Assembly (NCBI GenBank): GCA_001766815.1
Contig: LYOS01000006.1
Coordinates: 20,147-52,146, forward strand
DNA length: 32,000 bases
Origin: Candidatus Syntropharchaeum caldarium
GTDB taxonomy: Archaea > Halobacteriota > Syntropharchaeia > Syntropharchaeales > Syntropharchaeaceae
Reading direction: 5' to 3'
A program made the position numbers and the translations under genes. The notes beneath the pieces were generated by a model that worked only from the letters and a program-made list of their open reading frames with translations, was not told where the DNA came from and made no database searches. This document shows, piece by piece, positions 20,485 to 32,000 of the stretch. Within the stretch, counting starts at the first letter, position 1. Each line of letters begins with the position of its first letter.

Positions 20485-21765
20485 ATGAAGAAGTTGCATG
20501 GAGAAGATGCGGTTTCAAGCCTTGTCGGAGCACTGCTCTTGCTTGCGATCTTTGTCAGCTTTATAGCGATGCTACAGGTTCATAGTGTGCCAGTATGGAA
20601 TCGAGAGGTTGAATACGGCCACATGGACACGCTTTATAATGATTTCTCAAATTTTAAGGTTGCTGTAGAGGATTCAGTGATTTATAACCTCCCAAAATCG
20701 GCATCGATCCACATGGGAACGCGATATCCAACACGGGTCTTGTTGAGAAACCCACAGAGCCATAGCTCAGGTACGCTCACGATCGTAAATAATTCCTGGG
20801 TGAATATCAGCTATGGTGGCAAGAAGATCGCAATTCAGACCGCAACCCTTTCGTTTGAACCAAACCACCTCTATGCAGATACGCCTACACTTGTATATGA
20901 GTATGGCACGGTTATAAGATCCTACAGTAATGCAAATGTAACAACAGATGACCAATCGATAATTCGGGAGGGCAGGATCACGATACCGGTTATACTGACG
21001 GGCGAGAATCTCACATCGATCTCAGGATCTGAAGTAAGAGAGGTCAACCTGAATCCTGCCACCGAAGCACTTCCGATAATAATTAACCCTCCGGGAGATG
21101 TCAATATCACACTCACAACCAGTTATCCTGATGTATGGAAACGACTTCTTGATGACATCCCCAACACCAACGTCTCAGGAAACACGATATTCATCAATAG
21201 AACAGGGATAAAGGAGATCAGATATCCGGAGAATGCAACAGCAAGCGGGCTGTACGCAGGGCTGATAAGGATCAGCAATGAGAGCACGGCAAAGTCGGTG
21301 CGGTTGTACCCAAAAGCTATTCTGGATAATACGAGTACTGGGTACTGGCTTGATCTGGGAGAAGTAACCATGTTCAGGTACGATGATGGCAAGACATATC
21401 GAAACAAACAAACATGGCGTAATACCCCTCCGTTCCCCAATCCAAATGTATACTTTTCTTTTTACTTTGACTCACCCATACCCCAGAATGCCAGAATCAT
21501 TAATGCAACGCTTGTGAACAAATATGCAAAGTCAGACGGAAATATAACCTGTGAGGTCAAGATCTACAACAGCACATCCGAGAGTGATTATATCCCACTT
21601 ACTTACCCTCTTACGTACCCTTCGCTTACCTGTGGCGAGTATATAAGAACCACAGATGACCTAAACAACCTCAGCGTTAAACTTTTTGGTTATAATACAT
21701 ACACTCTTGCTTCCCCTGACTACACTTACCACGACCTCACCTACATCGAGATAACCTATATTTAA
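20485..21765 (+). CDS. secreted/surface protein with archaeal type IV pilin-like (class III) signal peptide; sequon-rich
   Basis: The N-terminus MKKLHGEDAVSSLVGALLLLAIFVSFIAML resembles the archaeal pilin / DUF1628 N-terminal pattern (D.AVS...G..LL.AI). I count 14 N-x-S/T sequons in the mature part. I recognised no other domain. Confidence 0.6.
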   Translation: MKKLHGEDAVSSLVGALLLLAIFVSFIAMLQVHSVPVWNREVEYGHMDTLYNDFSNFKVAVEDSVIYNLPKSASIHMGTRYPTRVLLRNPQSHSSGTLTIVNNSWVNISYGGKKIAIQTATLSFEPNHLYADTPTLVYEYGTVIRSYSNANVTTDDQSIIREGRITIPVILTGENLTSISGSEVREVNLNPATEALPIIINPPGDVNITLTTSYPDVWKRLLDDIPNTNVSGNTIFINRTGIKEIRYPENATASGLYAGLIRISNESTAKSVRLYPKAILDNTSTGYWLDLGEVTMFRYDDGKTYRNKQTWRNTPPFPNPNVYFSFYFDSPIPQNARIINATLVNKYAKSDGNITCEVKIYNSTSESDYIPLTYPLTYPSLTCGEYIRTTDDLNNLSVKLFGYNTYTLASPDYTYHDLTYIEITYI

Positions 21766-21787
21766 TCTCAGGAGAGATGAGAAGAAG

Positions 21788-22687
21788 ATGTCAGACGTTA
21801 AGATATTCTGGGACCCAAAGGGGTTTGAGCTTGACTCACTCGGAAGGAAGAAGTATATCAGGGCAACTGACGGGGATACACCCTATATCTCAACCTCGAT
21901 CAGGATGCTTGGTATCGACACCCCGGAGGTACATTATCCGGGTAACAGTTCCCCCGTTAAGTTTGATGCAAAGCTCAAAGAACTTGCAGGCTGGATCAGA
22001 GAGGGTATTGCGCCTGTAGATGAAGCACTCGGAGAATACCTGATTCCCAGGCTTGAAACTGGCGAAGCAGGCACGCTCCAGAAAGAGCAGGGTGAGCAGG
22101 CAAGAGCATACTTTGAAGCACTCCTCGATAGACTGTTGAGAAAAGAGAGCGGTAGAAGGCGATCGGTATATATTCAGACAGCGGATGAACCCTTTGACCA
22201 GTATGGGAGGCTCCTTGCATACATGGCACCGTCTTACACATCAGATGAGCTTGCAAAACTCTCAAGGCATGAACGGGCGACGTTCAACTACTTAATGGTT
22301 GAATCAGGGTGGGCAGCAAGTTTTTTGATCTACCCCAGTTTACCGAAGCACGCCGACCTTGTGATGCTGCAGGAGGGTGCAAAAGCAGCATGTGAGAACA
22401 GGCGAGGTGCATGGGAGAACGAATTGATGCTCACAGGTTATGAGTTCAGGATGGCTGTAAAACTCTATAATATCACAAAGAAAATCGTGGCTAACAGGAA
22501 TGTATCCTCAAGGGAAAGGTCTGGATGGATAAGCCGATTCTGTGTGGATATGACAAGCGGTGAGATATTCTATCCACAGGAATATTATAAAGTCTCGCCT
22601 TACAACAGAATATTTGTTTGGCCAGCAGATGTCACGGATGCGGTCGCCAAGATGAATCTTAAACCCCCTATCGATCGAGAAGCATGA
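21788..22687 (+). CDS. staphylococcal-nuclease (SNase/thermonuclease)-like protein, no obvious signal peptide
   Basis: It has ATDGDTPYI...IRMLGIDTPE...FDQYGRLLAYM...NYLMVESGWA, which matches the SNase signature order (DGDT, R.lGiD.PE, D.yGR.la, n..lv..G.A). It carries a roughly 110-aa C-terminal extension of unknown type. Confidence 0.72.
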   Translation: MSDVKIFWDPKGFELDSLGRKKYIRATDGDTPYISTSIRMLGIDTPEVHYPGNSSPVKFDAKLKELAGWIREGIAPVDEALGEYLIPRLETGEAGTLQKEQGEQARAYFEALLDRLLRKESGRRRSVYIQTADEPFDQYGRLLAYMAPSYTSDELAKLSRHERATFNYLMVESGWAASFLIYPSLPKHADLVMLQEGAKAACENRRGAWENELMLTGYEFRMAVKLYNITKKIVANRNVSSRERSGWISRFCVDMTSGEIFYPQEYYKVSPYNRIFVWPADVTDAVAKMNLKPPIDREA

Positions 22688-25280: not shown

Positions 25281-26703
25281 GCGTATCAAAAATTTCGAGG
25301 AGGTTGCACTCGGGCTTGACGAAACAGAGGCAGTTCTTGAGGCAAAACGATGCCTTGAATGCCAGCGTCCGTGGTGTGTCAGGGGTTGTCCTGTTGGGGT
25401 GGATATACCGCGATTTATCCGTGCTATCAGGGATGGAAGGTTTGAAGACGGGATAAGAATCATCTGGGAGAAGAACTCGCTTCCTGCTGTATGTGGCAGG
25501 GTCTGTCCGCATGAGGTGCAGTGTGAAGGGGTCTGTTCACTCGCAAGAGGTTGCTCGAAGTTTATGACAGCGAAGGGGAGAGCAAGGGTTGAAGCATTTT
25601 TAGAACAGTTCAACCTCACCCAAAAGCGGAGAAGACCTGTATCAATCGGGGCGTTAGAGCGTTTTCTCGCGGACTATGCAGCAGAACATGGTATCACTCC
25701 TTATACTGCTGGATCAGATATGAAAGGAAAGGGAAAGGTTGCCCTCGTTGGATCGGGTCCTGCCTCGCTTGCAGCAGCAGGTGAGCTTGCACGGAGGGGT
25801 TACCATGCAACCATCTTTGAAGCCCTTCATGCACCTGGTGGGGTTCTCAGATACGGGATTCCAAACTTCAGACTCCCAGAAGAGATCATCGATCGGGAGA
25901 TAAGACAGCTTAAAGATATGGGTGTCGAGTTCAGGCAGGATGTTCTGATCGGGAGAACGTTGACGATTGATGAACTTTTATCTGACTTTGATGCGGTTTT
26001 TATCGGAAGTGGTGCAGGTGCGCCTGTCTTGATGGGAATTGAAGGAGAAAACCTGAACGGTGTCTATTCTGCAAACGAGTTTCTGACACGTGTGAACCTG
26101 ATGGAGGCATACCGTTTCCCTGAGACCGATACGCCGATCAATATTGGGAAAAGGGTTGTTACAATCGGTGGTGGGAATGTGGCGATGGACTCGGCCCGTG
26201 TTGCCCTCAGACTCGGTGCAGAGGAGTCGATCATACTCTACAGGAGACGCCGTGAGGAGATGCCAGCAAGGCGTGAGGAGATTGAGAATGCTGAAGAGGA
26301 AGGAGTGGAGTTTAAGTTTCTCACAACCCCTACAAAGTACATCGGCGATGATGAGGGGTGTGTTAGAGCGGTTGAGTGTATCAGGATGGAGCCTGGCGAG
26401 GTGGATGATTCTGGGAGACAGCGTCCTGTTCCTGTTGCAGGATCTGAGTTTACGATCGAGGCTGATACCGTGATCGTTGCGATCGGACAGCGCCCAAATC
26501 CTCTGATACCAACCACAACTCAGGGGCTTGAAACTGGGAAGATCAGAAATATCATCGCAGATGAGAGTGGCAGAACATCGATAAAGGGTGTATTTGCAGG
26601 AGGAGATGCTACAACCGGTGCTGCCACCGTGATACTTGCGATGGGTGCGGGAGTCAGGGCGGCACGTGCTATAGCTGAGTATATTGAAGGATGCAAAGAT
26701 TGA
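25258..26703 (+). CDS. nfnB: NfnB/SudA-like subunit (glutamate synthase small-chain GltD family)
   Basis: It has RIKNFEEVALGL....AKRCLEC..P.C..GCPV and CGRVCP...CEGVC (two Fe-S motifs), then VALVGSGPASLAAAGELARRG and VVTIGGGNVAMD, with a C-terminal GVFAGGDATTGAATVI. Track ORF 25108..26703 was trimmed. The start is probably TTG 25258 or GTG 25273, next to the nfnA stop at 25280. Confidence 0.85.
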   Translation: MKKQDVSRRIKNFEEVALGLDETEAVLEAKRCLECQRPWCVRGCPVGVDIPRFIRAIRDGRFEDGIRIIWEKNSLPAVCGRVCPHEVQCEGVCSLARGCSKFMTAKGRARVEAFLEQFNLTQKRRRPVSIGALERFLADYAAEHGITPYTAGSDMKGKGKVALVGSGPASLAAAGELARRGYHATIFEALHAPGGVLRYGIPNFRLPEEIIDREIRQLKDMGVEFRQDVLIGRTLTIDELLSDFDAVFIGSGAGAPVLMGIEGENLNGVYSANEFLTRVNLMEAYRFPETDTPINIGKRVVTIGGGNVAMDSARVALRLGAEESIILYRRRREEMPARREEIENAEEEGVEFKFLTTPTKYIGDDEGCVRAVECIRMEPGEVDDSGRQRPVPVAGSEFTIEADTVIVAIGQRPNPLIPTTTQGLETGKIRNIIADESGRTSIKGVFAGGDATTGAATVILAMGAGVRAARAIAEYIEGCKD

Positions 26704-26776
26704 CGATCATCGAGCACTGTTTTACTTTACTTACTCCTGAATCTTGTCGTTCGCCTCCAGATGGTCATACCAAAAA

Positions 26777-26788
26777 TTTATATAAAAG
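26777..26788 (+). promoter_or_regulatory. TATA-like box upstream of the orphan 231-aa ORF
   Basis: tttatataaaag lies in an AT-rich 156-nt gap. The inverted repeat GGATTC(26801-26806)/GAATCC(26817-26822) follows it. Pattern only. Confidence 0.3.
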
Positions 26789-26859
26789 ATTAATAGAATA
26801 GGATTCAATTGGAAGAGAATCCTTCCATTTATAGAACGTATGATCGAGAGGAATGAATA

Positions 26860-27555
26860 ATGTTCGATGAACATTCTAAAAATGATCTATCTGTGAAGGA
26901 TTATGTTACTAAGCTGTTTGAGTATGGTAAATACGAACAGCTGAGGGTGATCGATGAAGTACTGAACAGTACAGATAAACGAGGAGTTCGGGGCGTATAT
27001 GAGATCACTGAAGAGCAAAAGAGACCGCGAAAATTTGAGCCCTACCCTGGCATCATAGAAGAGCATGAAAATTATATCGCCATTTCACCTGCTGTGATAG
27101 ATGAATTAAGTGATGTTATTAACAGCGAAAAAGAAAAAAGAACGGCTGATCTGAGAAATGCTGTATCGAAAAAAATAGAGGAACTACAACAAAAAAAACC
27201 TGGCGTTGAGGTCGATCATGTGGATGAGAGAATGTTGAAGATCAAATCACAGGACGACATGCCACTGTATATTTATATATCAACATGGCTAATTCGAAGC
27301 GATTTTAAAAAGACTTTTGATGATGACTCACATCTTGTAATTTCAGTTACACATCAGCCAGTTCATTCTATTGTGAATTTTGTCGATGAGAACCAGAGTT
27401 TATTCGATTCCTTACTGGCAATTTCGTTTTATGAAAGTGATTATCCCGAGACGAAATCGTTTATAAGGGTTTTGCGGGGCTATAAACATCCGTTGCTGAA
27501 TGAAATTTTTGTCGGATCCGCGTACTCATACTTCAATCGGATAAGTATGTGGTAG
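26860..27555 (+). CDS. hypothetical protein (231 aa), no recognisable domain
   Basis: This is a long ORF in AT-rich DNA with a purine-rich stretch (gagaggaatgaataATG) upstream. It is acidic and Lys-rich with a central coiled-coil-like EKEKRTADLRNAVSKKIEELQQKK. I recognised no family. Confidence 0.5.
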   Translation: MFDEHSKNDLSVKDYVTKLFEYGKYEQLRVIDEVLNSTDKRGVRGVYEITEEQKRPRKFEPYPGIIEEHENYIAISPAVIDELSDVINSEKEKRTADLRNAVSKKIEELQQKKPGVEVDHVDERMLKIKSQDDMPLYIYISTWLIRSDFKKTFDDDSHLVISVTHQPVHSIVNFVDENQSLFDSLLAISFYESDYPETKSFIRVLRGYKHPLLNEIFVGSAYSYFNRISMW

Positions 27556-27707
27556 AGGAGAACTGCCTTCAGCAGACCAGTTTGGTGAAGTCTTTATCAA
27601 AGGCATCTTGTAGAGCTGTACATCATGGGGGTTCAGATTGAGTGAGCTCTTTCACACTACCGAAAAACATAAGTGAAAACAAAAAAGCTTATCAAAAATT
27701 AGAAAAA

Positions 27708-27717
27708 CTTTAAATAC
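27708..27717 (+). promoter_or_regulatory. TATA-like box upstream of the disrupted hsdM 5' region
   Basis: ctttaaatac follows an A-rich tract and lies about 10-20 nt upstream of where the hsdM-related reading frame opens (27726). Pattern only. Confidence 0.25.
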
Positions 27718-27725
27718 TGGTATAA

Positions 27726-28308
27726 CTGAGTCCCTTTATAAACCATACTGAAGCCAAGCTCCCAAAGTGGCTTGAGAGCAGATATTCAATACTATGGGAT
27801 GCTTTTGCTGATTCAAACTTCAGAATGGAGGATGCTGCAAAGGTTTTAGAGGAGAAGAAAAAGATAGCAGGGATCAGGTTGGTGTAATTCTTTCTGAGCT
27901 TAGAAAAAATGATTGGCTACAGGTAGAGCTTGATCCAGAGGATGCAAGAAAAAGACTTTACAGGCTTAAAAGCAAGGAAGAAATTATATCTGAAACTATT
28001 TCTCTCAAGAATAACAGGCTAACAAGGGGCGAGATCGAGGTTCTCTTGAAGAGGGCAGCAGATCTTATACGCACAGGGTTGACTACACCTTCATCCTTGT
28101 CCTTCTCTTCTACAAGAGGATCAGCGATAAGTGGGAGATTGAGTATGAAAGAGCTTATAAAGAGGCTCTTGAGGATGGATTCAGTGAGGAGGAGGCAAGA
28201 GAAGAAGCAAAAAGCTCAATCTATCACGATTTTGACCTTCCTGAGGAGTTTCTGTGGGAGAAGATCAGAAAGTATCCATCTAAATTATCAGAAAACTTCT
28301 CTAAAGCG
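27726..28308 (+). pseudogene. hsdM: frameshift-disrupted 5' part of hsdM (wHTH-like extension plus HsdM N-terminal domain)
   Basis: One coherent protein can only be read by joining three frames. Frame A (27726-27887) reads ..LPKWLESRYSILWDAFADSNFRMEDAAKVLEEKKK. Frame B (open 27812-28312, with no start codon before 28046) reads DSRDQVGVILSELRKNDWLQVELDPEDARKRLYRLKSKEE...TRGEIEVLLKRAADLIRT. Frame C (open from 28015, continuous with 28309..29511) reads VDYTFILVLLFYKRISDKWEIEYE.... The last two pieces together give the HsdM_N signature (L.KAAD.LR....Y....L.LLF.KRISD). Confidence 0.6.
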
Positions 28309-29511
28309 ATGAAAGCGATTGCTGAGAGAAATCCAGAGCTTAGAGATGTCTTTGAGAATATCGATTTCCTTCAGTTCACATCAAGCAGGGAGAATACAGA
28401 GATGCTGGGACAGCTTGTTGAGATCTTCAGCGCAAAACCCCTCCATCATGTATCCCCTGATATACTTGGGGATGCCTATGAGTGGATTCTGCATTACTTC
28501 GCCCCACAGAAGGCAAAGGAAGGGGAGGTTTACACACCGAGGGAGGTTATAAAGCTCCTGGTCGAGATACTCGATCCAGAGCCTGAAGAGAGCGTGTATG
28601 ATCCAGCCTGTGGATCTGGGGGCATGCTCATAATCTCATACAGGCACGTTGAGAATTTGCATGGTAAAGAAGGAGCGGAAAAGCTGTTTCTCTTCGGACA
28701 GGAGGCAAATCCAAAGACACTTGCCCTTTCAAAGATGAACCTGTATATCCATGATATAAGAAATGCCCAGCTTGCACACGGCGATACCCTGCTCTATCCA
28801 AAGTTCAAAGAAGGTGATGGGCAGAAGAGGTTTGATATCGTCATAGCAAACCCACCCTGGAATCAGGACGGCTACAGTGAGAATGAGCTTAAGAAGGGTG
28901 AGTTCTGGAATAAGCGGTTCAGATATGGCTTTACTCCAAAGCAGTCTGCAGACTGGGCATGGATCCAGCACATGATCGCATCTGCAGACGAGGATGGAAG
29001 GGTTGGAGTTGTTATTGACAATGGCTGTCTCTTCAGGGGTGGGAAGGAGAAGGCGATAAGGAAAGGAATACTGAGGGATGATCTGGTTGAGTGTGTTATT
29101 CTGCTCCCTGAAAAGCTCTTCTACAACACTGGGGCACCAGGGGCTGTACTCATTTTCAAAAAGAATAAGCCTGATGAGAGAAAAGGCAAGGTTCTCTTTA
29201 TCAATGCATCAAATGAGTATGAGCAGCATCCTGAAGTGAGAAAGCTCAATCGCTTAGGAGATGAACACATTGAGAAGATCGCCAGTGCCTATCGAGAATT
29301 TAAGGAAATGGATGGGTTTACAAGGGTTGTTGACCTTGAAGAGATCAAAGAGAATGATTACAACCTGAATGTAACCCTGTATGTCTTTCCAGAGGAGGAA
29401 GTTGAGGAGATTGATGTCGGCAAGGAATGGGAGGAGCTTAAGAGGATTGAAGGAGAGATAATGGAGGTTGAGGAGAGGATTGAGGGGTATTTGAGGGAGG
29501 TTGGGGTTTGA
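28309..29511 (+). CDS. hsdM: type I restriction-modification N6-adenine DNA methyltransferase subunit (catalytic part)
   Basis: It has TPREVIKLLVEILDP, motif I DPACGSGGML, motif IV IANPPWN, and a Glu-rich coiled-coil C-terminus. The frame stays open upstream to 28015 with no start codon (see the pseudogene entry). Confidence 0.9.
   Translation: MKAIAERNPELRDVFENIDFLQFTSSRENTEMLGQLVEIFSAKPLHHVSPDILGDAYEWILHYFAPQKAKEGEVYTPREVIKLLVEILDPEPEESVYDPACGSGGMLIISYRHVENLHGKEGAEKLFLFGQEANPKTLALSKMNLYIHDIRNAQLAHGDTLLYPKFKEGDGQKRFDIVIANPPWNQDGYSENELKKGEFWNKRFRYGFTPKQSADWAWIQHMIASADEDGRVGVVIDNGCLFRGGKEKAIRKGILRDDLVECVILLPEKLFYNTGAPGAVLIFKKNKPDERKGKVLFINASNEYEQHPEVRKLNRLGDEHIEKIASAYREFKEMDGFTRVVDLEEIKENDYNLNVTLYVFPEEEVEEIDVGKEWEELKRIEGEIMEVEERIEGYLREVGV
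29476..29493 (+). repeat. direct repeat copy 1 (hsdM 3' end), partner at 30397..30414
   Basis: AGGATTGAGGGGTATTTG here versus AGGATTGAGGAGTATTTG at the partner site, 17/18 identical. Both are in frame, encoding RIEGYL and RIEEYL, and each ends 5-6 codons before a stop. Confidence 0.8.
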
Positions 29512-29572
29512 TAGAGGTACAAAAGAAGATGATCAAAACCGGAAAGATGACTGTAAACTCGCAGAAGTCGAT

Positions 29573-29635
29573 ATGGTCTCAGAGGAGTGGGTTTGGAGAG
29601 AGTTGATAGGTTATGGGAAGGAAAGTAAAAGATAG
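29573..29635 (+). pseudogene. hsdS: relic hsdS 5' end (20-codon stub)
   Basis: The stub MVSEEWVWRELIGYGKESKR* parallels the N-terminus of the intact hsdS at 31734 (..IPEEWEVVRLGEVITYVKGKK). It shares the exact 12-mer CAGAGGAGTGGG (29580-29591 versus 31786-31797). Confidence 0.45.
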
Positions 29636-30350
29636 AGAAGATGATGATAGGAAAAAGATGACGATCGGGGAACTGAACAAAATTTACTATGGACCTGATA
29701 GGGATGGTAGAAATGTATCGGTAAATGAAATAAAAGGATATGAGGACTTCCAGAGGGGCCGTATCCTTTCTCCATTAAGAGAAAAAGATGTTAAACGATT
29801 CTTTGCTCCCATTGGTGAGGTTGAAAAAATACCAAGAAACAACCAGAAGAAGACCAATGACTTTAAGATAGAGAGTGAGAAACTTATGATAGAGGTAAAG
29901 TCAATAAACACAACCGTTAATGCAACTGGAGAGCAGGACGAAGATGGAAACATCCCGATTAACTTACCTGGAAATGAAAACAAGTTTATCGAAAGAATAA
30001 ATAGATGTATAGAACTTGCAGAAGCGAAAGAAGACGCCCCTGAAGACTATAAGAAGGTCGTTGTCATACATCTTGACCCTGTGATGCTTGGACTTAACCC
30101 TGATCTTCCGGATAAGGTATTTCATCCCGAGTTTATTAAAAAGACAAGTTTTATCTATAGTTCTCTTGATGGTTTGATCTTTTTGCCACCAAAAATTGGA
30201 TTCATCAAAAGTTATGGAGAGACACCACCAGGACCGATATGTTACAGACCGATAGGTTACGTGAAAGGTCATAAGATGATGGAATTGCTGAGTAAAATCA
30301 ATGAATTGGAAGTAAAGCTTTTGGAGGATGAAGATGACGCGAAGATATGA
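29613..30350 (+). CDS. hypothetical protein with PD-(D/E)xK-like nuclease motif (245 aa)
   Basis: TNDFKIESEKLMIEVKSIN carries D83...E94-V-K96. This has the D-x(10)-E-x-K spacing and the hydrophobic-EVKS strand typical of Hjc/NucS/restriction-endonuclease-fold proteins. An alternative start is ATG 29658 (MTIGELNK). No family name was recognised. Confidence 0.55.
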   Translation: MGRKVKDREDDDRKKMTIGELNKIYYGPDRDGRNVSVNEIKGYEDFQRGRILSPLREKDVKRFFAPIGEVEKIPRNNQKKTNDFKIESEKLMIEVKSINTTVNATGEQDEDGNIPINLPGNENKFIERINRCIELAEAKEDAPEDYKKVVVIHLDPVMLGLNPDLPDKVFHPEFIKKTSFIYSSLDGLIFLPPKIGFIKSYGETPPGPICYRPIGYVKGHKMMELLSKINELEVKLLEDEDDAKI

Positions 30351-30435
30351 TCGAGCAGGGTATGAGGGGGCCCTGAAAGGAAAAGACAGGCTTGGAAGGA
30401 TTGAGGAGTATTTGGATGAATTAAGGAGGTTATAG
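30334..30435 (+). pseudogene. relic hsdM 3' end, or a 33-aa coupled micro-ORF
   Basis: It reads MTRRYDRAGYEGALKGKDRLGRIEEYLDELRRL*. GGAGGA lies 5 nt upstream. It contains repeat copy 2 (30397-30414) of the hsdM terminus. Its TAG overlaps the GTG of the next gene by 1 nt (TAGTG at 30433-30437). Confidence 0.4.
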
Positions 30436-30644
30436 TGTCTTTAAAAATTATTCTTAATCTCTTTATTGATCATCCCTTGGCAGCGATCATTTCTCTATTA
30501 TTTGGTGGCGGGATTTTATTTGGACTTATTGGAGGATTAACAGGAATAGAGTTTTTCTTAGATCATTGGATGACATTGATTGGTTTAGGCGCTTTAATCA
30601 TTCTGCTAAGTTTTGCGTTGGAATTATTAAGAGAGGGATATTGA
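30435..30644 (+). CDS. small membrane protein, two predicted TM helices (69 aa)
   Basis: The start is GTG, preceded by AAGGAGG. The sequence has two hydrophobic Gly-rich segments: PLAAIISLLFGGGILFGLIGGLTGI and WMTLIGLGALIILLSFALELL. Its stop TGA abuts the next ATG (TGAATG). Confidence 0.6.
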   Translation: MSLKIILNLFIDHPLAAIISLLFGGGILFGLIGGLTGIEFFLDHWMTLIGLGALIILLSFALELLREGY

Positions 30645-31733
30645 ATGGAGAGTAACTATATAAATCAGACTCCAAAAAAATGGGGGGAGTTGAGTGCAAA
30701 CACAAAGACAAAAGATGAGATAAAACTTGAAGTCTATTCAGATGAAATAAACAGAGTCAAATTATCTATTGATAACTCGGTCTGGATGTATATAGGAGCG
30801 CTTTTTGTTCCGATAAACTTCAAGGATTATTGCCTTACGAAGCTAAATAATTTACGATGTGTGAAATATGGAAACTGGCACGATGAAGAATCGGAATGTC
30901 CCCAACAATGTGGCTTCCATGAGGATAACGATACAGAAATCCACTATAAAAACCTGCATAAATCTAAATCCGATGCAGGGCCCAAGATAGCCAAAAACTG
31001 GATAAATAAGTTTATGATTCAAGAAAGCTGTCAAAAACATCGCAAACCGGTTTATTTAAACATCCTTGGTTTAAATCTCTCAAATATGAACCTTGAACTA
31101 TTCGGGGAAAATAAAGGTCGTGATCTCACGATCTACAATCGATTCTATAGGTCCGTATTGAAAGGTGGCATTAATTATTTCTTTAGGGATTACAGAAGAA
31201 TCACAATACGCCAAATATACCATGACAAAGGAAGTCAGGAGACACATGAGCTATTTTCATGGCACCCGATTTATAGGATTGGTTTAGAGAGTGAAAAAAT
31301 AAAGATAGAAAGGGATGAAATCGAATTTATCGATTCAGATCATAGAAAAAGTGGAAAAAAAGAATCGCACTTCATACAATTGATAGACCTAATCTTGGGT
31401 GCTACATACGTCTGCCTCCATAACCCATCCGATAGAAGAGAGAAGAAAGAGGTTGGTCTTGCCTTTAAACCGGCGTTAACGGTACTACTTGACCGCAAGA
31501 AAAACCCGAACAACAATTACATGGAAGGTTCTTACTACCACAGTAATTATTACAGGACATATCAGATATCTTTCTTTCCTAAAAAGAAGATGGAACTTGA
31601 TGAAATCTTTAATCAACTGGATGTATATGGTAATCAAATGACTGAAAATATGAGAATTGAGGATAATTTCTATTACGATCGCCCCATTTTGCTCACCGAC
31701 CCATCTCAACGTGATTTAACAGGGTGGTTCTAA
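30645..31733 (+). CDS. hypothetical 362-aa protein with Cys/His cluster and QLxDLIxG motif (possibly a distant DUF3800-like protein)
   Basis: It has C72-x6-H79-x5-C85-x3-C89-x2-H92 (CVKYGNWHDEESECPQQCGFH) and FIDSDHRKSGKKESHFIQLIDLILGATY (aa 228-255). The latter resembles the C-terminal DS...QLaDliaG motif I recall for DUF3800, but the N-terminal DES motif is absent (MYIGALFVP). Its stop TAA abuts the hsdS ATG. Confidence 0.6.
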   Translation: MESNYINQTPKKWGELSANTKTKDEIKLEVYSDEINRVKLSIDNSVWMYIGALFVPINFKDYCLTKLNNLRCVKYGNWHDEESECPQQCGFHEDNDTEIHYKNLHKSKSDAGPKIAKNWINKFMIQESCQKHRKPVYLNILGLNLSNMNLELFGENKGRDLTIYNRFYRSVLKGGINYFFRDYRRITIRQIYHDKGSQETHELFSWHPIYRIGLESEKIKIERDEIEFIDSDHRKSGKKESHFIQLIDLILGATYVCLHNPSDRREKKEVGLAFKPALTVLLDRKKNPNNNYMEGSYYHSNYYRTYQISFFPKKKMELDEIFNQLDVYGNQMTENMRIEDNFYYDRPILLTDPSQRDLTGWF

Positions 31734-32000
31734 ATGAATCTCAAGGAAGAATCTGGATACAAACAAACTCCAATCGGCAAAATTCCAGAGGAGTGGGAGG
31801 TTGTTAGACTTGGAGAAGTTATAACTTACGTTAAGGGTAAGAAACCAGAGATCATGGTAGAAGAATACCAAGAAGAATGCTTGCCATACCTTTCAACTGA
31901 TTATTTAAGAAATGGGAAAGCTACGCAGTTTGTTAGAATTACAGGAAGTGAAATTGTAGTAGAGGAAGGAGATATCATATTATTATGGGACGGCTCTAAT
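31734..32000 (+). CDS. hsdS: type I R-M specificity subunit, 5' part (runs off window end)
   Basis: Absent from the ORF track because there is no stop in the window. My translation reads MNLKEESGYKQTPIGKIPEEWEVVRLGEVITYVKGKKPE...GDIILLWDGSN, which is the typical HsdS TRD1 opening (P.(E/G)W....LGE...........GD.L....GS.). Confidence 0.85.
   Translation, partial: MNLKEESGYKQTPIGKIPEEWEVVRLGEVITYVKGKKPEIMVEEYQEECLPYLSTDYLRNGKATQFVRITGSEIVVEEGDIILLWDGSN

Follow-up and report, generated by a model that had tools for sequence, protein, structure and literature searches.

Towards the end of the window, by which we mean the whole 32,000-nucleotide stretch of Candidatus Syntropharchaeum caldarium DNA analysed here (GenBank assembly GCA_001766815.1, contig LYOS01000006.1, positions 20,147 to 52,146 of the forward strand), the open reading frame (ORF) listing and Pfam matches give the gene order hsdM, orf245, TM69, orf362, hsdS. 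Our subject is orf362 and the small membrane-protein gene TM69 that precedes it, both of which sit inside a type I restriction–modification (R-M) operon, between hsdM and hsdS. This setting was absent from an initial annotation of the same DNA, which had treated TM69 and orf362 as a unit of their own. The features on which the argument turns are as follows (window coordinates; TM, transmembrane):

30645–31733, forward strand: orf362, divergent DUF3800 / RNase H-like predicted nuclease, cargo in the slot between TM69 and hsdS
30741–30746, forward strand: D33-E34, the N-terminal DE dyad on the first β-strand (strand 23–39 of the structural model)
30858–30920, forward strand: CCCH cluster (C72, C85, C89, H92), putative zinc-binding insertion
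31221–31343, forward strand: H193-D194 and D230-S231-D232-H233, conserved polar/acidic motifs (YHDKG, FIDSDHRK)
31377–31388, forward strand: Q245-x-x-D248, the C-terminal QxxD of DUF3800, on model helix 241–259
30423–30429, forward strand: Shine–Dalgarno-like AAGGAGG, 5 nucleotides upstream of the TM69 GTG (direct reading)
30435–30644, forward strand: TM69, conserved two-TM glycine-zipper microprotein of the type I R-M operon lineage

The orf362 product (362 amino acids, ~42 kDa) is soluble, with no hydrophobic segment (maximum 19-residue Kyte–Doolittle mean 1.23), and both its length and the QLIDLILG core at 31377–31400 given in the initial annotation were confirmed by direct reading. The Pfam family PF12686 (DUF3800) is matched almost from end to end (profile positions 2–146 of 149, beginning at orf362 residue 30 aligned to profile position 2; expect value (E) 0.021), although at 16 bits the score lies below the gathering score of 21 bits. 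Relatives of orf362 make the assignment firmer: of 26 full-length relatives, 19 match PF12686 at E ≤ 0.01 (best 2.4e-6) and none matches another family, a few relatives bear precomputed PF12686 matches and one is named 'DUF3800 domain-containing protein' in UniRef. A search of 5.8 billion proteins returned 126 relatives, mostly from methanogens with some from Asgard archaea and some from bacteria, and a HMMER family profile run against 1.84 billion representatives retrieved 492 clusters (50% identity) at E ≤ 1e-3, 206 of them at E ≤ 1e-30. Most of these 492 clusters comprise proteins of 300–360 amino acids that match end to end. Relatives of orf362 are thinly and unevenly spread over archaeal and bacterial phyla that are not related to one another. 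The orf362 branch is a discrete long subfamily of the DUF3800 superfamily.

An AlphaFold2 model of orf362 built on the alignment reached a mean predicted local distance difference test score (pLDDT) of 85.2 and a predicted template modelling score (pTM) of 0.86. Its best Foldseek match in BFVD is a phage 'DUF3800 domain-containing protein' (E 5.9e-7, probability 1.0, template modelling score 0.58 on the target), and the top 14 matches in PDB, all weak (E 6e-3 to 0.1), are without exception RNase H2/HII catalytic subunits, the closest solved fold to the model. RNase HII has an adjacent D-E pair on its first strand. At the sequence level we found no such relationship (a profile of the 26 relatives gave no match at E ≤ 1 against PDB sequences), and orf362 differs further from RNase HII/H2 in its extra His/Asp motifs, its zinc cluster and its C-terminal domain. 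An RNase H or RNase H2-like fold is assigned to DUF3800 in the literature (PMC7736814, PMC10910872, PMC12669027), and an analysis of retron DUF3800 proteins likewise compares them with RNase HII (PMC7736814). From sequence and model together, orf362 is best described as a divergent member of the DUF3800 / RNase H-like family whose predicted fold is closest to RNase HII. The tentative DUF3800 link drawn in the initial annotation is thus borne out by the relatives' PF12686 matches, by the phage DUF3800 structural match and by the presence of both family motifs.

These motifs were counted in a family alignment of 233 sequences. The initial annotation had taken the N-terminal DES motif of the family to be replaced by GAL (in MYIGALFVP); this was wrong, since VYSD33E34IN stands 15 residues upstream of MYIGALFVP and, of the 215 relatives with this column covered, 214 have the D-E pair. 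At the other end of the core, Q245 and D248 are each present in all 233 sequences, unlike the retron DUF3800 proteins, which lack the Q of QxxD (PMC7736814). The intervening motifs are also well kept (H193 in 218, D194 in 215, H233 in 222, E98 in 205, and D232 in 193 with N in a further 31 of the 233), and D33, E34, E98, D194, D232, Q245 and D248 read DEEDDQD in 158 of 233, most others being one position off. Because the DE dyad and QxxD are both present and conserved, orf362 looks catalytically intact; of the earlier description as a 'divergent or inactivated member, or unrelated', divergence stands and inactivation does not. The putative metal-binding site (D33-E34, E98, H193-D194, D232-H233 and Q245xxD248) likewise looks intact on alignment.

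Beyond the nearly end-to-end profile cover, the DE dyad, QxxD and the structural match that it shares with PF12686, the orf362 branch adds two elements: a CCCH insertion of about 27 amino acids after the first helix, and a conserved, family-specific tail of about 100 amino acids (FFP, Y343, R346) after the DUF3800 core. A Cys/His cluster, C72-x6-H79-x5-C85-x3-C89-x2-H92, had been pointed out at 30858–30920; it is present there and conserved beyond what chance would give, but it is not the five-ligand cluster that had been proposed. C72, C85, C89 and H92 are complete in 152 of 233 relatives, all four are gapped in 54, and the rest show scattered partial patterns, whereas H79 is kept in only 36 of 233, so that the cluster is CCCH. 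The segment around it has a median length of 27 residues in sequences with the cluster and of 8 in those without. This mostly all-or-none behaviour is as a zinc-binding insertion would show, and the CCCH cluster may accordingly be expected to bind zinc.

The genomic surroundings of orf362 homologues were surveyed in 30 genome loci, scanned with an alignment of 13 closer sequences, to which 80 metagenome loci were added (loci carry our labels, L followed by a number); the neighbourhood counts that follow are lower bounds without a background rate, having come from pattern-seeded scans and limited BLAST queries. In the 30 genome loci, the clusters of neighbours that recur in more than one lineage are those of HsdR (6 loci), HsdS (5), HsdM (5) and Eco57I-type enzymes (4), and R-M families head the Pfam list among 98 neighbouring genes. 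Apart from Fpo genes, which are confined to three Methanosarcina genomes, all-against-all clustering of the neighbours in these loci gave no other conserved partner. The gene directly after the homologue is hsdS in the window, L004/L057, L005, L020, L028, L036, L058, L059, L077 and L105, with hsdM seen upstream of the homologue in the window, L005, L020, L028, L059 and L105, the other contigs being too short. The junction with hsdS is often tight: in the window the orf362 stop adjoins the hsdS ATG (TAAATG at 31731–31736), L028 has a 2-nucleotide gap, and L020 and L036 have overlaps. The homologues P0015 and P0016 (in L051 and L053) lie instead inside Hma systems, with the SNF2 helicase on one side, the DUF1156 methylase on the other and a DUF499 ATPase following, and in L017, L023, L025 and L033 the homologue adjoins Eco57I-type enzymes (type IIG). 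In the metagenome set of 80 loci, type I, type IIG-like or Hma-like neighbours were seen in about 20, many of these contigs being short. As regards the two Hma loci themselves, L051 (3312–14334) and L053 (3407–14289) hold complete Hma systems (SNF2/NOV_C helicase, DUF1156 methylase and DUF499/HEPN_Swt1 ATPase), L051 has in addition a UvrD/PDDEXK protein and a GmrSD_N/HNH protein at its flanks, and both loci are dense defence islands.

The recurrence of homologues directly upstream of hsdS, often translationally coupled to it, brings to mind PrrC, an ABC-ATPase-type anticodon nuclease made up of an ABC-ATPase head and a nuclease domain. Could orf362 be a guard of the same kind, bound and silenced by the type I R-M (or Hma) complex and freed as a suicidal nuclease upon viral inhibition of restriction? 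In EcoprrI with its PrrC, as in the experimentally validated type I-embedded genes TgvAB of Vibrio cholerae VPI-2 (PMC11411939), a defence-type gene lies between hsd genes and is expressed together with these (PMC11411939; Payne et al.), and that is the arrangement seen here. PrrC is embedded in type I systems almost without exception (Payne et al.), homologues of orf362 are embedded in Hma systems too, and in the L020 homologue, which lies upstream of hsdS, the N-terminal tail copies the N-terminus of HsdS (KEAEIGLIPEDW vs KETPIGKIPEDW). The protein families are nevertheless unrelated to orf362 (TgvAB being GmrSD-like), and neither an ABC-ATPase nor any other sensor domain was found: in orf362 and its relatives there is no ATPase or other Pfam domain besides DUF3800. 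Many homologues, unlike PrrC, are solo or stand beside unrelated genes (L055, the Methanosarcina fpo locus and most of the metagenome loci), and the heterogeneity of the hosts (type I, type IIG and Hma) speaks against one specific protein interface. In the window protein, moreover, the HsdS-like tail is weakly marked, its score being reached by about 47 of 2000 shuffles, and it is better read as a recombination scar. On balance we regard such a guard function as unlikely.

A possible kinship is with candidates in PADLOC, whose model PDC-M04A is matched by 15 of the 26 relatives (best E 8.3e-10). The 145 PDC candidates go back to genes found inside BREX, DISARM or type I R-M systems ('guilt-by-embedding'; Payne et al., bioRxiv 10.1101/2024.01.29.577857), and the embedding of orf362 in type I R-M is the very ground on which they were picked. 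PDC-M04 differs in being listed as a multi-gene candidate, whereas no window neighbour of orf362 matches any PADLOC model: a PDC-M04 partner was sought in TM69, orf245 and orf231 (an orphan gene further upstream), none of which gave a significant PADLOC match, and the 30 genome loci hold no conserved partner outside R-M. The DUF3800 proteins of type VII retrons and the TPR-DUF3800 proteins of Cas12a2/Cas12a3 loci show the same superfamily recruited as the presumed nuclease arm of an immune system, and they differ from the window locus, which has no reverse transcriptase, TPR or CRISPR component.

Some homologues stand alone, namely a copy in L055 beside an RNA 3'-terminal phosphate cyclase and the copies of three Methanosarcina genomes (L006 2339–3857; L007 6956–8554; L009 6977–8486), where the homologue is convergent with fpoO at a conserved site, the end of the F420H2 dehydrogenase (fpo) operon, with no R-M genes nearby. 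Such solo copies are as expected of an autonomous module. The constant position beside fpoO and the phosphate cyclase neighbour can also be taken to favour a role outside defence, in which orf362 would be an accessory or housekeeping RNase H-like enzyme (for R-loop or primer removal, or RNA processing) or a hitch-hiking regulator in variable islands, and the association of canonical DUF3800 genes with structured RNAs (PMC5737381) points the same way. Such RNAs are frequent in the family rather than defining for it, and none of them was found here: an Rfam scan of 26000–32000 at E ≤ 10 gave no DUF3800-associated RNA (DUF3800-I to XI, drum, skipping-rope), and none of the 11 Rfam DUF3800 motifs occurs at gathering score in 22 loci of orf362 homologues. 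Taken with the rare, patchy distribution over unrelated phyla and with the enrichment of R-M and Hma neighbours, this makes a non-defence role quite unlikely in our estimation.

TM69 is a real gene. Its 69-amino acid frame with a GTG start, the AAGGAGG upstream and the stop adjoining the ATG of orf362 (TGAATG, 30642–30647) are all present as first described, and the two TM segments ascribed to it correspond to two hydrophobic peaks in the hydropathy profile, at residues ~14–38 and ~44–65, the first of which holds a GxxxGxxxG zipper (G26/G30/G34). Homologues form 16 clusters, 26 columns are invariant among nine aligned sequences, and the ratio of non-synonymous to synonymous polymorphism (pN/pS) is 0.19–0.59 in all 36 pairs. 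Homologues were found in nine distinct contexts: L034/L035 have hsdM, TM69 (in 1-nucleotide overlap with hsdM), an hsdS 5' remnant, a ParE toxin–antitoxin pair and hsdS, with hsdR further downstream; L039–L042 have hsdM, a Schlafen/AlbA_2 protein, orf56, TM72 and hsdS; L045/L046 have hsdM, TM70, hsdS, two more genes and hsdR; and L036–L038 have TM70, an orf362 homologue (67% identical) and hsdS, the proteins of this pair being 67% and 71% identical to their window counterparts. The remaining contexts, next to that of the window, are L043/L044, L047, L048 and L049/L050. A homologue of orf362 is present in only two of the nine, the window and the closely related L036–L038 lineage.

The initial annotation had seen in the abutting stop and start of TM69 and orf362 a fixed stoichiometric pair and, by extension, a two-component abortive-infection module composed of a small membrane partner and a soluble sensor or effector; for this pair that would mean a membrane effector or anchor and a soluble sensor or nuclease. 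Besides that abutment, the recurrence of the pair in L036–L038, the purifying selection on TM69 and its pore-type glycine zipper would suit such a module. The two co-occurring lineages are, however, close relatives and so probably represent one event, and elsewhere the genes part company: TM69 occurs without orf362 in seven of its nine contexts, directly preceding hsdS in L039–L042 and L045/L046 and an hsdS remnant in L034, and none of the 110 other loci of orf362 homologues has a TM69 homologue. More precisely, no TM69 homologue or small hydrophobic ORF lies upstream in the 30 genome loci, the 80 metagenome loci gave no TM69 homologue even at E ≤ 1, and the 62 metagenome loci with at least 350 nucleotides of upstream sequence show no conserved small membrane ORF, just sporadic unrelated hydrophobic ORFs. 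Even the loci with 75%-identical orf362 homologues (L004/L057 and L094) are without TM69. Conserved co-occurrence of the two genes is thus missing, TM69 homologues being essentially absent beside orf362 homologues elsewhere; TM69 belongs to the operon and pairing with orf362 is not supported, which leaves a dedicated two-component module very unlikely. The fixed place of TM69 between hsdM and hsdS, together with its glycine zipper, invites the speculation that it is an oligomeric membrane component of this R-M lineage.

How orf362 came to lie against TM69 may be read from the remains of neighbouring genes at the edges of the inserts. The other members of the operon in the window are:

27826–28308, forward strand: 5' part of hsdM (HsdM N-terminal region), frameshift-broken, by three-frame translation
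28309–29511, forward strand: hsdM, methyltransferase core of type I R-M (Pfam N6_Mtase, 5.9e-119)
29613–30350, forward strand: orf245, orphan cargo gene in the slot between hsdM and TM69, charged, 245 amino acids
30334–30435, forward strand: orf33, detached hsdM 3'-end remnant of 33 codons, by resemblance to the C-terminus of L034 HsdM
31734–32000, forward strand: hsdS (specificity subunit) 5' part, cut by the window end (Pfam Methylase_S, 3.9e-6)

Related operons (HsdM 64–77% identical; L034 1676–5070, L039 234–2250 and L045 207–5886) hold different passengers in the same slots: a ParE toxin–antitoxin pair and MazE/PIN in L034, where hsdS and hsdR are fragmented too, a Schlafen AlbA_2/HATPase_c_4 protein in L039, and two unknown genes between hsdS and hsdR in L045. 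In L034 an HsdM ending in GRIEGYLAELRWL directly precedes TM69. In the window it is orf33 that takes this place. Its ending, GRIEEYLDELRRL, resembles the L034 HsdM C-terminus with a score that was reached by only 2 of 500 shuffles, and the stop codon of orf33 shares 1 nucleotide with the TM69 GTG (TAGTG). The orf56 of L039 ends like orf33 and forms the corresponding stub after the Schlafen/AlbA_2 insertion. The other junction is preserved in L034, where TM69 is followed by TAAATG and a 22-codon hsdS 5' stub ahead of the toxin–antitoxin cargo, so that the abutment of stop and ATG is not specific to orf362 and is no evidence of stoichiometric pairing. From these remnants the ancestral order would have been hsdM, TM69, hsdS, tightly coupled at both junctions; orf245 in the window and the Schlafen gene in L039 would have entered between hsdM and TM69, with a 3' stub of hsdM left behind, and the abutting TM69 stop and orf362 ATG would be inherited from the older TM69–hsdS junction. 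It is this second junction that orf362 occupies in the window, where L034 holds its stub and toxin–antitoxin cargo.

The start of the cargo proteins bears on the same point. In the independent Methanohalophilus locus L020 (6968–7050) the tail of the homologue, KEAEIGLIPEDW, matches the HsdS N-terminus, KETPIGKIPEDW, with a score that 0 of 2000 shuffles reach, and by this comparison it is clearly HsdS-derived. In the window the first residues of orf362, MESNYINQTP (region 30645–30690), weakly resemble HsdS N-termini (MSNYKQTP in L039 and ESGYKQTP in the window hsdS), 47–51 of 2000 shuffles reaching the score. Together this suggests that cargo genes were fused in-frame to the first hsdS codons on insertion. 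We also considered the tail motif 'WGEL' as a general HsdS-derived scar and ruled it out, because homologues that are solo or lie in Hma systems have WG[ED]L tails too.

Regarding these tails more generally, residues 1–25 of the relatives are variable but include recurring motifs, [DEKN]xWG[ED]L in one archaeal clade, which includes Hma-embedded and solo members, and [DN]LFG in many others; residues 1–19 of the orf362 model are of low confidence (pLDDT below 50).

Insertions flanked by duplicated ends of neighbouring genes, together with an RNase H-like fold, might also be expected of a selfish element whose target would be R-M operons and whose nuclease or transposase would be orf362, either a DDE-type enzyme of RNase H fold or a homing nuclease. 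Yet orf362 adjoins its neighbours with no spare DNA for terminal repeats, unrelated cargo fills the same slots, and no transposase or integrase family is matched. Relatives of orf362, as of orf245, are absent from the viral contigs of IMG/VR by pattern search and tblastn, and PHROGs gave none. A selfish origin of this kind is therefore extremely unlikely.

We consider it probable that orf362 is an autonomous, metal-dependent DUF3800-type nuclease with a zinc-knuckle insertion, carried as cargo of the R-M operon and adding a layer of defence to it. According to this proposal, the gene would have been inserted at the junction of the operon's TM69 and hsdS and would use stop–ATG translational coupling like that at the junction of TM69 and the hsdS remnant in L034, so that orf362 would be made whenever the R-M genes are expressed. 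The protein might then cleave RNA, RNA:DNA hybrids or DNA as a stand-alone nuclease, its zinc-knuckle insertion might bind nucleic acid, and it could thereby add a second antiviral or anti-plasmid layer to restriction, acting without TM69. The comparisons above show the family and fold, the conserved motifs, the repeated embedding in R-M and Hma systems and the independence from TM69, whereas nuclease activity, substrate, zinc binding and a part in defence are inferred from them.

Several observations weigh against this proposal. orf362 itself stays under the Pfam gathering score, and the structural similarity of its model to RNase H2 is weak (template modelling scores 0.22–0.44). It matches PDC-M04A over only 46 residues around QxxD (239–283; E 1.2e-4), and PDC-M04 is itself a candidate system only. 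In the literature searched there is no DUF3800 protein with a demonstrated biochemical activity or defence phenotype. Over half of the homologue loci are without a recognisable R-M neighbour, within the limits of the queries mentioned above, and the window's hsdM looks frameshifted; the operon may be decaying, or the assembly may hold errors. Finally, the pairing with TM69 that is kept in one lineage (the window and L036–L038) leaves room for a lineage-specific interaction.

A bolder combination, which we judge quite improbable, would make TM69 a fourth, membrane-embedded part of an archaeal type I R-M lineage and the CCCH-DUF3800 protein a new PrrC-like guard effector on an RNase H fold. For TM69 it builds on conservation at the hsdM–hsdS junction, translational coupling on both sides and the glycine zipper. 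If this were true, the CCCH-DUF3800 effector would plug into type I R-M, Hma and type IIG systems alike, restrained by them and released on their inhibition, and the duplicated gene ends flanking the cargo would mark a recombination mechanism that swaps effectors through fixed operon slots.

The interest of the locus lies first in its family. DUF3800 is a widespread RNase H-like family that recurs in retrons, in Cas12a2/a3 loci and among embedded defence candidates. Its CCCH branch consists of compact, single-gene members that combine a zinc module with a predicted active site left intact and that turn up time and again inside type I R-M and Hma operons, which makes this predicted defence-embedded nuclease a clean candidate for a first biochemical and phage- or virus-challenge test of DUF3800, archaea included. 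The locus furthermore illustrates how an R-M operon gathers cargo, in fixed hsdM–TM69 and TM69–hsdS slots with short remnants of neighbouring genes at the insert edges. It fits the published 'guilt-by-embedding' picture and overturns no current ideas.

As to the rest of the operon, the window hsdM is 64–67% identical to HsdM of L034/L035. By three-frame translation its 5' stretch (27826–28308), comprising the HsdM_N region and an upstream winged-helix-like stretch, is split over three frames, with frame hops near 27865 (an A-rich run) and near 28072 (a GGG run) that look like 1-nucleotide indels in short homopolymers; the intact L034 HsdM aligns to the window only from its own residue 30, at 28075. 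At the other end, hsdS continues beyond the window in identical contigs, and hsdR, not present within the window, was found downstream in the related operons L034 and L045. No significant match was obtained for orf245 in Pfam, NCBIfam, PADLOC or PHROGs, its sole weak match being to the DpnII-MboI restriction-endonuclease family (E 0.1). We rejected it as a conserved partner of orf362 or TM69, as it belongs to no family and is absent from all other loci bar identical copies. It may itself be embedded cargo, the second such gene in the operon.

The window genes that lie upstream of about 26.7 kb are of an ordinary chromosomal kind, among them those for GluRS, a LeuA-like protein, an aminotransferase and cation antiporters. 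The GC content is 0.37–0.41 over most of the R-M region compared with about 0.46 upstream, as expected of an acquired island. The orphan gene orf231 (26860–27555) lies at the upstream edge of this low-GC island and has sub-threshold matches to PIN_4 (E 0.018) and to an Mtr4 β-barrel (E 0.003), but no noteworthy match in PADLOC. Rfam weakly matches the enterobacterial small RNA C0719 at 26582–26734 (25 bits, gathering score 50; E 0.0045); this match overlaps the 3' end of a glutamate-synthase-like gene and is almost certainly due to chance. At 20485–22687, among otherwise housekeeping genes, the gene for a DUF7289 protein (E 2.9e-11) precedes one for a staphylococcal-nuclease-like protein (SNase, E 9e-8).

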